DNA of 64,000 bases from Escherichia phage SDYTW1-F1-2-2_3 (OR296290.1), one strand, 5' to 3'. Numbered from the stretch's first letter, positions 19,231-24,046 are shown. A program made the numbers and translations. Notes: a model not told the origin generated them from the letters alone.

Positions 19231-19491
19231 TCATTTGTTTTCCTGTGGAGTTAAGATAATTTCAACCTTACTAAACTTCTCACCAACAACCATATCACCA
19301 GAGATGACACGTAGTTCTCCCGTGCCTAAATTAACAGCTCCAGCAGGTTGACAACCTCTGCTCTTGGCTGTCATCATGTAAATCTTTTGATTCTGGCACT
19401 CTTGGAGTGTGAACACATCAGACATGTTTAGATCTTTAACACGAAGAACTGTCTTTTCTATGAAATCAACCTTGATACTGATAGTGCTCAT
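19231..19491 (-). CDS. small protein, GDVF paralog family
   Basis: 86 aa; L..DVF motif shared with family members. Confidence 0.45.
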   Translation of the reverse strand: MSTISIKVDFIEKTVLRVKDLNMSDVFTLQECQNQKIYMMTAKSRGCQPAGAVNLGTGELRVISGDMVVGEKFSKVEIILTPQENK

Positions 19492-19496
19492 TGGTG

Positions 19497-19742
19497 TTAT
19501 TCCTGAACCACTGACATACGAATCACTTCAACTGGGGCATCACTTTTCATAACACCTAGTACACCAGTAAGAAGATTAACTGTAGTAATCCAACCTTCTT
19601 CGACAGAGATTTTGTTGGATACATTACTAACACGGATGTAGTACTGAGGAGTTGCTGTTCCTCGCTGAACTACGAAAGGGTTTCCGGGAATAATTGTAGC
19701 CAGTGAAACAGTGTTATCTTTAATCTTTGGGATGATCTTCAT
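19497..19742 (-). CDS. small protein (81 aa)
   Basis: Track ORF trimmed to ATG 19742 to remove overlap. Confidence 0.4.
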   Translation of the reverse strand: MKIIPKIKDNTVSLATIIPGNPFVVQRGTATPQYYIRVSNVSNKISVEEGWITTVNLLTGVLGVMKSDAPVEVIRMSVVQE

Positions 19743-19743
19743 A

Positions 19744-19974
19744 TTATTTACCCTGAATAATGAGTTTCGATTCGAACAGCTCAACAGTATTGGAATGAGG
19801 GACTGGAAAGAAAATATCTTTAGAATTCCGAACACCCATTGCAGAGTGGTCCCCTGTTTTTATCCAGAATTTAGGGACTACATCGTCACCAATAAAACGG
19901 AAAACATCTCCATTCTCCAAGTCAGAGAAAGTCTTGGAGGGTTCTTTACTTTTTGGTACTTGTTCAAAGTTCAT
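19744..19974 (-). CDS. small protein, GDVF paralog family
   Basis: 76 aa; LENGDVFRF...FWIKT. Confidence 0.45.
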   Translation of the reverse strand: MNFEQVPKSKEPSKTFSDLENGDVFRFIGDDVVPKFWIKTGDHSAMGVRNSKDIFFPVPHSNTVELFESKLIIQGK

Positions 19975-19982
19975 CTTGATTC

Positions 19983-20306
19983 CTATTTAAGTTTGAGGCT
20001 AATGTTAAGGTGCATACATGCCCTGTTCTGTACAGCAGCATAACTTCTACCGAGCATGTCAGCCATTCTCTGAATAGACATGAACCCAGCATTACGGATA
20101 AGGAACTGGTCTTCTTCTTTAGACCACTTGACTCGGATTACAGCTCTAGAAATACCGAACTTAGTGCAAGCTGTATTAACTGCATTCTCCGTTACATTCA
20201 TAATCTGAGCAACTTCTTGAACCGAGTACTCTTTGATTAGTCTCCGAAGATTTTCAATCTGCATCGGAGTCCATATAGTTCTTCGAGCTTTCATTTTACC
20301 ACCCAT
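19983..20306 (-). CDS. DNA-binding protein with two tandem Myb/SANT-like HTH repeats
   Basis: WTPMQIENLRRLIKEYSVQEVAQIM... and WSKEEDQFLIRNAGFMSIQRMADMLGRSYAAVQNR repeats. Confidence 0.5.
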   Translation of the reverse strand: MGGKMKARRTIWTPMQIENLRRLIKEYSVQEVAQIMNVTENAVNTACTKFGISRAVIRVKWSKEEDQFLIRNAGFMSIQRMADMLGRSYAAVQNRACMHLNISLKLK

Positions 20307-20517
20307 GTCGACTTTTAACTAACACACCATCAATTATCAGATAATGCGAATGCCTTATCATGTCTGAAGACAGATCTCCATGAGCGCTATTCCACTGAAG
20401 GAAGTTCATATCCTTCCAATCAGTGTAGTGCTTTTTGGCTTCTTCCTCTATCTGACTAAGAGTTACCCTTCTGAAAGGATACGGACTATGTTTGATAAGT
20501 GTTTCACATTTTGTCAT
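20296..20517 (-). CDS. hypothetical protein (73 aa)
   Basis: Track ORF. Confidence 0.4.
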   Translation of the reverse strand: MTKCETLIKHSPYPFRRVTLSQIEEEAKKHYTDWKDMNFLQWNSAHGDLSSDMIRHSHYLIIDGVLVKSRHGW

Positions 20518-20812
20518 ATACCCTCCGATTAAATGTTTATATAAGACTTGCTTAGATAAAGATTCAATAAAATAGGGGGAGGGGACGAATCCTCCCTTAT
20601 CCTATTAATTACTATTGCATGTAAGATCTAACAATCGGTTGCCTTTTTAGGAGTAAGCGTTATGCTCATCCAGCACTAAACTCCCGCCCCCTTAGTGGGC
20701 TGGGTTATTAAAGGGTAACGCCCTTATGGGCTAGTTACGTGAATGTTAGTTTGATAGGAGATCTGAAGTCCTATCTCAAAGGACTCTCGTAAGAATCCTT
20801 CACGATAAGCTC

Positions 20813-20986
20813 TTAACACGATTGGTCACACGGCTGATCACCGCATGTTTTACAGATCACTGGTGAGTAAATACAGGCAGGATATACTGACACACCGTCA
20901 AATGTCTCACACCCACAATCAGGGCATGTACCGTTGGATTCCATGTCATAATCATCATCCACTTCACCACCACCAAAACAGCTCAT
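20813..20986 (-). CDS. Cys-rich small protein (57 aa, 9 Cys)
   Basis: Below track cutoff; MSCFGGGEVDDD...CPDCGCETF...CKTCGDQPCDQSC; GAGGAG SD 5 nt upstream. Confidence 0.45.
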   Translation of the reverse strand: MSCFGGGEVDDDYDMESNGTCPDCGCETFDGVSVYPACIYSPVICKTCGDQPCDQSC

Positions 20987-20995
20987 ATGAACTCC

Positions 20996-21994: not shown

Positions 21995-21995
21995 A

Positions 21996-22169
21996 TCAAT
22001 CCCTCTTTTTACGGAACTCTGTCAGATTGAAGATCTTAGCGTCACTTACAGAAACCCCTTGATTTCTATGGGCGCGGTCTCTGGCTCGTCGTATCTGTTG
22101 CTTGCTTAAGAAAAGAACGAGTGAGTATTCTTCTCCATCTTCGAAAAATTTAACCTCTTTTCTTTTCAC
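21996..22169 (-). CDS. hypothetical small protein (57 aa)
   Basis: Track ORF trimmed to GTG 22169 (GAGGT SD) to resolve overlap with 22177-22428. Confidence 0.3.
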   Translation of the reverse strand: MKRKEVKFFEDGEEYSLVLFLSKQQIRRARDRAHRNQGVSVSDAKIFNLTEFRKKRD

Positions 22170-22176
22170 ATTAACC

Positions 22177-22428
22177 TCAAGCACAAGCAGGGAGAGTGAT
22201 GATTTTATATCGACCCTCAAACTCTCCAAATAAACCCAAGAATGTAGGACTGTAAGTACCAGTACAAACAAACTCATCAAACAGTGCGTTATAGCTAGGC
22301 TTAATCTTCCAAGCCCATACATAACCCATCTTGTCAATTGCAATGTAACGAGTGTTCAGAGGAACAGTCATCATTACACCGTCAACTTCGATCACTTTAG
22401 TGATTGGTGCAGCTTGAAAGTTTTTCAT
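22177..22428 (-). CDS. hypothetical protein (83 aa)
   Basis: Track ORF; ATGA overlap with upstream zinc-ribbon ORF. Confidence 0.45.
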   Translation of the reverse strand: MKNFQAAPITKVIEVDGVMMTVPLNTRYIAIDKMGYVWAWKIKPSYNALFDEFVCTGTYSPTFLGLFGEFEGRYKIITLPACA

Positions 22429-22601
22429 ACTTTACCTTTAATAAAGATATCATTACCACAGACACAGCATGAACGAACAACAGTAGCGCCACGCTGAACG
22501 ATACGAACCTCTTCCTTAACCAGATTAACACGAGCACCACAGCAAGGAGAGTTAACATAAGAGTAACCAGCTTGTGTATTCTTGATTGTTTGCTTAGACA
22601 T
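22425..22601 (-). CDS. zinc-ribbon small protein (58 aa)
   Basis: Below track cutoff; MSKQTIKNTQAGYSYVNSPCCGARVN...SCCVCGNDIF; GAGGAAG SD. Confidence 0.45.
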   Translation of the reverse strand: MSKQTIKNTQAGYSYVNSPCCGARVNLVKEEVRIVQRGATVVRSCCVCGNDIFIKGKV

Positions 22602-23124
22602 TTTAGCTTCCTCTTGTTAGTTTAAGTAAGAGTTGTCCCTTAATTAAAACAACAAAGGCCACCCGATTGGGCAGCCTTTTTATCTATTAACTATTATATG
22701 TCCAACTACCTTGCTTGTTACGAATAGCTGACATTGCATGAATCCAGAAGCCTTCCAGTTTCAGAGCACCGTTAGCTACTGCATCCATACGTTCAGGGCG
22801 GTTCATACGTTTGGTTGATACTTTCATACCTATCTCTCTTTGTTAGTGGAGGCATTATTGCCAGTTAATATAAAGGGAAGCCCTACACGTTAAGGCTTCC
22901 GCTTGTACAAACTGTCGAGAACTCTCTACCCCTAGATTGTTCTCTATCCCAAACCGATACGTACCCCTACATATCAGAAAGTCTTTCGAAAATTAACAGG
23001 TTTTAGTCTAACACCGGATGTTCGAGCAAGCTCTCCCTAGCGGTGTGGCATATGCCTGATTAATAAGTTAATGAGGAACACCCTCACATAGCCCTCTGAT
23101 AAACACAAGGGCTATAGGTCGGTG

Positions 23125-23343
23125 TTACTTTTGAGATAAACACAGATCAGGACGTGGCATAACAGTGGTTGATAGGCCGAAGACTTCAACAGAACCACTG
23201 TTCAAGTCAGCAGCTTTACACAAACCGTCAGGAGTTTTATCTTCTAGCATCAGCCAGAAACGTCTGTCGTAAGAGAAAACATCACCACCCTTAACATCTT
23301 CTGCATTTGCATATTTAGGATAATCAACTACTTTAATGTCCAT
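23125..23343 (-). CDS. small protein, GDVF paralog family
   Basis: 72 aa; VKGGDVFSYDRRFWLMLED...ADLNSGSV. Confidence 0.45.
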   Translation of the reverse strand: MDIKVVDYPKYANAEDVKGGDVFSYDRRFWLMLEDKTPDGLCKAADLNSGSVEVFGLSTTVMPRPDLCLSQK

Positions 23344-23353
23344 CTAATTGCCC

Positions 23354-23572
23354 TTATTGATAGATAGAAAGGTGGATAAGTTTATTCACATGAGCGAAGT
23401 TAGGAAGGATTTGCATCTCATTGTTGAAGATATTAAAACAACGAACCCCGCCCTCTACAGCATAAGCAGATTTCTGAAACAAACTCCCTCCCCACACAAA
23501 CACATCATGTGTTTCAAGAGATCGTAACTGAACAGCCTCGTCAACAACCTTCTTTTCAATGTTCATATTCAC
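23354..23572 (-). CDS. small protein, GDVF-like
   Basis: 72 aa; LETHDVFVWGGSLF. Confidence 0.4.
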   Translation of the reverse strand: MNMNIEKKVVDEAVQLRSLETHDVFVWGGSLFQKSAYAVEGGVRCFNIFNNEMQILPNFAHVNKLIHLSIYQ

Positions 23573-23820
23573 TTCCGATTGGTAATTACTGCATCATGGA
23601 TAACTGAAACAGGTAAGTTTGAATCCAACTTCATTACTTGATTGGTGCTTAAACTAAGCACTACACAACCATTCCGAAGATCAGTCTCTGACACATGTGG
23701 TGTATATAACTGAACGATCATGTAATAATCAATACATGTTGCCTTAACTTGGAACACATCACCAAGTTTCAAATCACCCACACGCAATTCTTTAGCTTTA
23801 AGGTTCAGATCAATCTTCAT
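23569..23820 (-). CDS. small protein, GDVF paralog family
   Basis: 83 aa; LKLGDVFQVKATCIDYYMIV...DLRNGCVV. Confidence 0.45.
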   Translation of the reverse strand: MKIDLNLKAKELRVGDLKLGDVFQVKATCIDYYMIVQLYTPHVSETDLRNGCVVLSLSTNQVMKLDSNLPVSVIHDAVITNRK

Positions 23821-24046
23821 CTTTAGCCTCTATGTTGGTTATGTGGAGATCACTACGCACTTGGCAGACCTCATCCCGTTTAAAAGGCATGAGCTTTCCA
23901 GTTACTACATCAACACAGTTGACATAATTGTCTGCGTACAATGTGTCGGTTCTGATGTAAAGGGACTCTTTACGCTCAAACAGAACTCCCGGCTTCATAT
24001 TATTTAAGCGAAGCATTGTACGATCGGATTTAATATTAACTTTCAC
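23810..24046 (-). CDS. small protein, GDVF paralog family
   Basis: Track ORF trimmed to GTG 24046 (AGGAG SD 7 nt upstream); MKPGVLFERKESLYIRTD...CVDVVTGKL. Confidence 0.4.
   Translation of the reverse strand: MKVNIKSDRTMLRLNNMKPGVLFERKESLYIRTDTLYADNYVNCVDVVTGKLMPFKRDEVCQVRSDLHITNIEAKDED

Follow-up and report, generated by a model that had tools for sequence, protein, structure and literature searches.

What is a run of small, faintly similar proteins doing in the early region of a coliphage, and are these proteins truly related to one another? The question is raised by a 64,000 nt stretch of DNA from Escherichia phage SDYTW1-F1-2-2_3 (OR296290.1), called the window below, in which a first-pass annotation, made from the sequence without database searches, had noted seven small open reading frames (ORFs) between positions 19231 and 24046 and had taken them for a paralogous family with a GDVF motif, expanded by repeated duplication. 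The source DNA is that of a Kuravirus coliphage (phiEco32/SU10/MN03-like) of the subfamily Gordonclarkvirinae, phages of about 77 kb with prolate heads, and the 5.4-kb region is 90–94% identical to that of more than 100 Escherichia coli Kuravirus phages, including MN03, SU10, phiEco32 and the BASEL isolates Bas90 and Bas91. We show here that the family has eight copies in the window, named A to H, that their similarity reflects homology, and that each copy is kept by purifying selection. The domain is predicted to be a small SH3-like beta-barrel and, as judged by profile searches, it belongs to a large phage family that has been neither catalogued nor named. We tentatively suggest that the copies are binding modules made early in infection.

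Results

Eight copies and their homology

All seven ORFs of the first-pass annotation exist as described on the minus strand (Table 1); each is preceded by a Shine–Dalgarno-like motif and the reading frames are intact. The paralogs nevertheless number eight, because copy B had been missed, its mechanical ORF beginning further upstream than the gene itself. The start of B is the ATG at 19742 with AGGGTAAATAAT upstream, and its product, which starts with MKIIPK and reads MKIIPKIKDNTVSLATIIPGNPF...VNLLTG, has longer beta2–beta3 and beta3–beta4 loops. For copy F, an ATG at 23566 (70 amino acids), matching the annotation of MN03, is more likely to be the start than the GTG listed in Table 1. No further family member is detectable in the window beyond these eight genes, all of which lie on the minus strand with 70–86 codons each.

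Pairwise blastp was convincing only for D–E (2e-8) and D–H (6e-7), and stronger tests were therefore needed. An alignment and a hidden Markov model (HMM), by which the first-pass annotation had proposed to check its claim, were used in a leave-one-out form, in which the HMM of seven copies was run against all 625 stop-to-stop ORFs of the window and the left-out copy was ranked among 618. The omitted copy came first in all eight cases with E-values of 2e-9 to 1.6e-3, whereas the best unrelated ORF of the window never scored better than E = 0.12. Each copy is also a full-length member of its own PHROG (12612, 7431, 10911, 6570, 33163, 9955 and 16423, with D and E both belonging to phrog_6570) and in addition matches the PHROGs of other copies in register. 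Finally, when the profile of each orthogroup was compared by hhalign with a profile made from outside relatives only, probabilities of 96.8–99.3% were obtained (P 2e-10 to 3e-20), over 56–70 columns for seven of the copies. On the strength of the leave-one-out HMMs, the in-register PHROG cross-matches and the profile–profile probabilities, the similarity is one of homology and not of composition.

The signature of the domain can be written as M-K-I ... [VIL]-x-[LF]-x-D-L-x-x-G-D-V-F ... Y-[IM]-K-T ... [CA]-V-N-L-x-T-G ... V. In the numbering of copy D, used also for the conserved positions below, all eight copies keep F23; position 20 is serine in A and histidine in F instead of glycine, and G49 is asparagine in F and absent from C. 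In C the hhalign match is confined to residues 9–42, the C-terminal half is not alignable and the VNLxTG motif is missing, so that C is best described, from its sequence, as a divergent and partial family member.

Predicted fold

Copy D was modelled with AlphaFold from a 70-sequence family alignment, which gave a mean predicted local distance difference test score (pLDDT) of 84.8, with residues 11–60 above 90. The model has five beta-strands and no helix, and the strands run antiparallel and close into a small barrel, as is required of an SH3-like fold. The domain of about 70–85 residues is therefore predicted to be a five-stranded SH3-like small beta-barrel. The MKI strand at the N-terminus and the xITN strand at the C-terminus are conserved, and homodimers may form by the pairing of strands. 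A Foldseek search of BFVD with this model recovered kuravirus paralogs and gp21 of phage N4 (E 3.7e-5), and proteins of Proteus, Erwinia, Klebsiella, Yersinia, Pseudomonas and Vibrio phages were also matched among predicted viral structures. One match, a family member in phage EcoN5, is labelled 'Endolysin', probably mistakenly. The model of copy C is likewise all-beta, at moderate confidence (pLDDT 72.6).

Breadth of the family

While a word-indexed search returned kuravirus orthologues only, an exhaustive HMMER search of 1.84 billion cluster representatives (50% identity) yielded 798 clusters at the cut-off of E<=1e-3. Among the best 150 matches, 126 of the 144 new proteins have at most 100 residues, and the top matches are mostly standalone proteins of 60–100 residues with the same MKI...GDVF...VNLxTG signature, accompanied by some two-domain tandem fusions; one match (P0241) was rejected as an RCC1-repeat false positive. 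N4 gp21 is a member at the sequence level also, with 56 bits against the family HMM. tblastn searches of GenBank phages with a metagenomic member and with N4 gp21 found nothing or N4-like phages only; the family is too diverged for BLAST.

These sequence matches unite N4 gp21, at least nine PHROGs (6570, 7431, 7832, 8365, 9955, 10911, 12612, 16423 and 33163) and the 798 clusters in one large phage family, uncatalogued and unnamed. The nine PHROGs are all function-unassigned and are not linked to one another in that resource, and the copies are annotated as 'hypothetical protein' in every record examined. Scans of the eight copies and 36 diverse relatives against Pfam, NCBIfam and PADLOC gave nothing above noise; for the window copies there was no Pfam match at E<=10 except one unrelated marginal one, and a profile search of all PDB sequences (2026 copy) returned nothing significant.

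The metagenomic members lie in phage-like runs of small genes, and one metagenomic phage has two copies in tandem immediately behind its sigma-factor gene. The domain is not restricted to phages, since a SprT-like metallopeptidase encoded on the chromosome in a Tenacibaculum metagenome-assembled genome (L014, 8001–9437) contains it as five Lys/Arg-rich repeats in tandem, which match phrog_7832 and phrog_6570 at about 1e-20. It is also found in giant proteins. A phage-like metagenomic contig of 72% G+C (L006, 6481–16152) encodes a protein of 3223 residues with at least five barrel-domain copies, and a relative of 2223 residues with domain repeats (L015) adjoins giant NUDIX and Zeta-toxin proteins and a DUF932 protein. 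No other recognizable Pfam domain was found in the two giants, which may be polyvalent proteins.

Repertoire and selection in kuraviruses

HMM scans of six kuravirus genomes gave 8–11 copies per genome and at least 13 sequence types, the types being our own grouping, and this copy number sets kuraviruses apart from the other contexts examined. The 11 copies of MN03 are all confined to a single block of about 5.6 kb in its 77-kb genome. All six genomes have slots A, B, D, E, G and H filled. F is present in MN03 and Bas91 and absent from phiEco32, SU10 and XT18; together with the phi32_109 type, the phi32_97 type and an extra copy upstream of H, it shows clean presence or absence at gene boundaries. 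Slot C holds a different subtype in SU10, Bas91 and XT18, and the XT18 copy (of the SU10-gp098 type; L010, 3737–4002) is frameshifted into pieces of 61 and 43 residues and looks like a decaying gene. Two allelic lineages exist for each of B, G and H; they are 68–75% identical at the DNA level (about 70% for G). By these comparisons the repertoire varies by cassette-like gain, loss and replacement, as accessory arsenals do.

Repeated duplication in this lineage, as had been proposed, is not borne out by this comparison. Co-resident copies are only 17–36% identical, the DNA common to them amounts to the 24 nt encoding GDVF, and the nearest relative of each copy is a family member in another phage and not its neighbour. 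Recent tandem duplication was accordingly rejected, and the low identity together with the closer outside relatives means that the divergence is ancient or that a wide phage gene pool supplied the copies in separate acquisitions. Purifying selection maintains each copy: the ratio of non-synonymous to synonymous substitution rates (dN/dS) is 0–0.29 for all eight, at dS up to about 1.1.

One observation at the DNA level may be set beside these results. The 16-nt sequence AGGGTAAATAATATGA on the minus strand, which comprises a ribosome-binding site and a start codon, is identical at 19739–19754 and 24329–24344, where it precedes paralog B and a 98-residue membrane/coiled-coil gene (24036–24332), respectively. 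A translation-initiation cassette shared in this way could serve as a site of recombination through which genes are gained and lost like cassettes.

The early gene cluster

The copies are not scattered over the region, as had been thought, but form the tandem blocks H-G-F-E (24046–23125) and C-B-A (19974–19231) and the singleton D (21217–20996). Both blocks are translationally coupled, with gaps of 1–10 nt or overlaps of 4–11 nt between neighbours, and H overlaps G and the upstream 98-residue gene by 11 nt each. The placement of the ORFs in the early region, on the other hand, agrees with published work: the gene cluster that holds the copies is experimentally early in phiEco32, where it has been described as likely to serve host takeover (PMC8948821), and SU10 CDS 69–125 have been assigned to the early class (PMC4281155). 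Upstream of the leftward early cluster, a consensus scan found two sigma70-type promoter matches close to the consensus (Table 1), whose positions correspond to those of the sigma70 promoters that were described in SU10 between genes 120 and 121 (PMC4281155). The copies sit inside a sigma70-transcribed early cluster, whose timing would be as in phiEco32 and SU10.

Table 1. The eight barrel-domain genes and other features of the early cluster, with positions counted from the first letter of the window
Feature	Coordinates	Strand	Product	Corresponding gene	PHROG match (E-value)	Leave-one-out E-value	hhalign probability	dN/dS	Remarks
A	19231-19491	minus	86 aa	phi32_95	phrog_12612 (6e-39); cross-match phrog_7431	7.7e-5 (rank 1)	98.6%	0.14-0.16	LNMSDVF...IYMMT...VNLGTG
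B	19497-19742	minus	81 aa	phi32_96	phrog_7431 (7e-30)	2.5e-5	96.8%	0.08-0.29	IIPGNPF...YYIRV...VNLLTG
C	19744-19974	minus	76 aa	phi32_98	phrog_10911 (2e-34); cross-match phrog_6570 (5.9e-5, residues 9-49)	1.2e-3	96.9%		LENGDVF...FWIKT in N-terminal half
D	20996-21217	minus	73 aa	phi32_104	phrog_6570				Singleton between Cys-rich micro-ORF and lipoprotein/tRNA segment
E	23125-23343	minus	72 aa	phi32_113	phrog_6570 (2e-31)	2e-6	99.0%	0.04-0.22	VKGGDVF...FWLML...ADLNSG
F	23354-23572	minus	72 aa		phrog_33163 (8e-55); cross-matches phrog_6570, phrog_8365	1.6e-3	97.2% (residues 3-64)		Length from GTG at 23572
G	23569-23820	minus	83 aa	phi32_114	phrog_9955 (9e-42); cross-matches phrog_8365, phrog_12612, phrog_7431	1e-5	98.7%	0.17-0.26	
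H	23810-24046	minus	78 aa	phi32_115	phrog_16423 (4e-49); cross-matches phrog_6570 (2e-8), phrog_7832 (4e-6)	6e-8	99.3%	0-0.25	GTG start with AGGAG upstream
sigma70-type promoter match	28728-28700	minus							TTGACA-17-TATAGT
sigma70-type promoter match	28279-28251	minus							TTGACA-17-CATAAT
tRNA-Arg(TCT)	21745-21821								Interspersed with the family
Cys-rich micro-ORFs	20813-20986, 22425-22601, 21830-21994	minus	54-58 aa						CxxC-type pairs; interspersed with the family

Neighbouring genes and other paralogs of the window

The interspersed tRNA, lipobox protein and Cys-rich micro-ORFs are as the first-pass annotation had described them. The micro-ORFs, which are kept as annotated genes in related phages, probably encode zinc ribbons. 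The 98-residue protein (minus strand) begins with a hydrophobic segment and is coiled-coil-like towards its C-terminus, and the 'DNA helicase' label that its counterparts bear in many related records is apparently a misannotation copied from one record to the next. Between the C-B-A block and D, a protein of 107 residues (19983–20306, minus strand) appears by sequence to consist of two helix-turn-helix-like repeats; it is annotated as 'D5-like transcriptional regulator' in related phages and as 'endonuclease' in XT18.

Terminator-like hairpins are about twice as frequent between 18000 and 33000 as in shuffled sequence (22 versus 10.2 +/- 3.0) and lie mostly on the minus strand, examples being those at 24996–24977, 26405–26378 and 22679–22654. 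This excess points to an early operon divided into segments or to a requirement for antitermination.

Other small paralogous pairs are found elsewhere in the window, all on the minus strand. Two tandem hydrophobic micro-proteins of about 60 residues (1523–1708 and 1718–1897; 33% identical, E 1e-8) form a separate pair and are probably membrane proteins. Two proteins of 69 residues (854–1063 and 2917–3126), 38% identical over 52 residues (E 9e-5), are unrelated to the barrel family. Two HNH-type homing endonuclease-like genes (347–838 and 15346–15816) have a motif region of about 46 residues in common with 37% identity, which fits the insertions of homing endonucleases that have been reported for these phages.

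Discussion

The results presented here bear first on what the proteins are. Our structural and evolutionary description of the family, as a divergent set of homologous small domains of predicted SH3-like fold that is widespread in phages and varies by cassette in kuraviruses, is one in which we have high confidence. The step from this description to a function is of a different kind. It starts from the pattern of conservation: among 134 members, G20, F23, L46, G49 and V60 are 84–99% conserved, together with alternating hydrophobic residues, while surface positions have an entropy above 3 bits. We infer that the positions conserved family-wide are core and turn residues only. Insertions and deletions concentrate after residues 27 and 39, that is at the beta2–beta3 turn and at the tip of the beta3–beta4 hairpin, and the family lacks a conserved polar constellation and a cofactor motif and has no signal peptide, membrane segment or strong net charge. 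In contrast, the columns that differ between paralogs are 87% conserved within orthogroups, and the paralog-specific surface positions and the two indel-prone loops are conserved within each orthogroup. Taken together, conservation restricted to core and turns, the lack of enzyme features and the paralog-specific surfaces point to a stable scaffold with paralog-specific binding surfaces.

According to the model that we propose, the copies would be soluble binding modules without enzymatic activity, produced minutes after infection, and each would dock on a different host (or phage) macromolecule and thereby block or redirect its target, which would amount to host takeover or counter-defence. 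The domain repeats on a protease and on giant mobile-element proteins would fit such a role as recognition modules. This functional step we regard as tentative, its chances falling somewhat short of even, while the explanation as a whole, fold, history and function together, is in our view slightly better than an even bet. The evidence for a function in host takeover or anti-defence in particular, as the first-pass annotation had envisaged, is circumstantial. PADLOC, which covers defence proteins, gave no match, and the support for anti-defence consists of the early variable block and of the unexplained restriction resistance of the group: the Gordonclarkvirinae resist restriction-modification without a known inhibitor (PMC11990801). 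On these circumstantial grounds the paralog block is a reasonable place to look for counter-defence.

A virion or structural role is unlikely, as the genes belong to the early class and no copy is among the 34 proteins of the SU10 phage-preparation proteome, which was obtained from polyethylene glycol (PEG)-precipitated phage and not from infected cells. A gp79-type RNA-polymerase-binding factor was also considered and rejected, since gp79 of phiEco32 is all-alpha (PMC12276001) whereas the present family is all-beta, and the profile search of the PDB gave no support.

Several points weigh against the model. Only copy D has been modelled with confidence and the C model is mediocre; searched against BFVD with Foldseek, the latter had no match at E<=1e-3 and a sole family member at E 0.023. 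The orthologues that we compared are fairly close, which inflates the conservation within orthogroups, and the outside sequences used with hhalign had originally been retrieved with a profile that contained the window copies. The early timing is borrowed from phiEco32 and SU10, which are other phages than the present one, and the functional step rests on missing catalytic features, genomic position and analogy. A literature search for phiEco32 and Kuravirus paralogs, anti-defence and N4 gp21 gave no functional data and no mention of the paralogy, and no experimental datum on any family member was found.

The strongest rival explanation is that the proteins are nucleic-acid-binding barrels of the KOW, Sm or Tudor type, which act on RNA, DNA or the translation or transcription machinery, for example as RNA chaperones, mimics of the ribosome or the EF-P site, or DNA-end binders, and not as protein–protein inhibitors. 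The best structural neighbours speak for this, as do weak matches to the Pfam domain EFP_N on one giant homologue and on one of the 36 diverse members (E 0.17), and the Lys/Arg-rich hairpin loop in the repeats of the SprT-like protein would suit DNA binding. T4 MotB provides a precedent: this early protein, whose N-terminal domain is KOW-like, binds DNA together with H-NS (PMC7827196). However, the window copies are near neutral to acidic (pI 4.7–9.2, net charge -3.5 to +1.5), the median pI of the wider family is 5.15, and no basic patch is conserved family-wide. No window copy matches KOW (PF00467) or EFP_N (PF08207) above threshold, and hhalign gave a probability of 0.3% against E. coli EF-P; as no relationship was found there, the EF-P/KOW idea survives at the level of the fold only. 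We therefore consider binding to nucleic acids to be unlikely.

Improbable, and placed after nucleic-acid binding, is a role in phage–phage competition, superinfection exclusion or the regulation of the phage's own proteins, such as the sigma factor gp36 or replication proteins. It would account for the tandem copies behind the sigma-factor gene in the metagenomic phage, and six of the eight slots being filled in all six kuraviruses is more like a core function than pure accessory cargo; the YF01 pangenome paper, too, counts 16 hypothetical early genes as core. Against it, the family occurs also in phages with quite different transcription and replication strategies, N4 among them, several slots are dispensable or replaceable, and in phiEco32 the protein known to regulate gp36 and RNA polymerase is gp79, which is all-alpha and unrelated.

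We attach very little weight to the idea that the genes are evolutionary debris or neutral passengers, left over from ancient duplications or from ORFans gained by horizontal transfer and now without a function. The frameshifted copy of XT18, the slots missing in some genomes and the absence of any copy from the SU10 proteome would be expected of debris, but the low dN/dS of all eight copies, their intact frames, ribosome-binding sites and translational coupling, and the persistence of the family over hundreds of diverged clusters would not, and the SU10 proteome is that of a phage preparation. That the resemblance is compositional or due to chance, the case which the first-pass annotation itself had named as its refutation, has practically no probability left: most blastp E-values between co-resident copies are indeed marginal (0.002–50), but the tests described above, the outside relatives of each copy (E down to 1e-12), through which the paralogs are connected, and the confident model of D refute it for seven copies and, within C, for the N-terminal half.

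The model of early binding modules may be compared with known systems. N4 gp21 and the nine PHROGs are true sequence relatives of the same length and signature, although N4 has one copy in the first 22 kb scanned. In contrast, there is no sequence-level relationship between the window copies and domain I of EF-P/eIF5A, the C-terminal SH3-like domain of uL2 or the KOW domain of Spt5/NusG, and the window proteins, unlike these domains of translation proteins, stand alone and are not basic. The resemblance to Tudor-like domains (CarD/TRCF-RID, the UvrD C-terminal domain and eukaryotic Tudor) is likewise at the fold level only. PhiEco32 gp79, a four-helix protein that binds the RNA polymerase clamp and gp36, is unrelated (PMC12276001). 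Like the family members, T4 MotB is an early phage protein built on an SH3-like/KOW barrel, and its action on a host factor, H-NS-bound DNA, benefits phage fitness (PMC7827196); it differs in having two domains, the C-terminal one a DNA-binding OB-fold, and in being single-copy and confined to the Tevenvirinae, and no sequence relation was seen. The polyvalent proteins of phages and conjugative elements (PMC5512222), giant multidomain proteins of disparate combined activities, may offer a parallel to the giant proteins on mobile-element contigs, in which the barrel domain is repeated.

In organization the family resembles counter-defence and takeover arsenals such as anti-CRISPR and anti-restriction loci, which are likewise early and made up of small genes with rapid gain, loss and replacement in a fixed block. 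Such arsenals usually consist of unrelated folds, however, whereas here one fold is reused 8–11 times and most slots are constant. A bolder version of our model would see in this a phage-encoded binder scaffold, comparable to a natural monobody library, in which one barrel has its loops and surfaces tuned to different host defence or housekeeping proteins and cassettes are swapped between phages, at least one copy explaining the broad defence resistance of the Gordonclarkvirinae. We think this unlikely, if worth stating.

The fold itself and small-protein early arsenals were already known; what is new is a single widespread and uncatalogued family with a striking copy number in kuraviruses, where the paralogs make up about 7–9% of the gene set (11 of 125 genes in MN03). 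The unification of at least nine PHROGs, N4 gp21 and 798 metagenomic clusters makes the family a candidate for a new Pfam domain entry. If it is true that one scaffold is directed to different targets, the family would also be of interest to binder engineers. For the biology of these phages, the copies provide a compact list of targets for interaction, toxicity and knock-down screens in tractable phages such as Bas90, Bas91 and N4, and a concrete place in which to seek the missing anti-restriction or host-takeover factors of the Gordonclarkvirinae.

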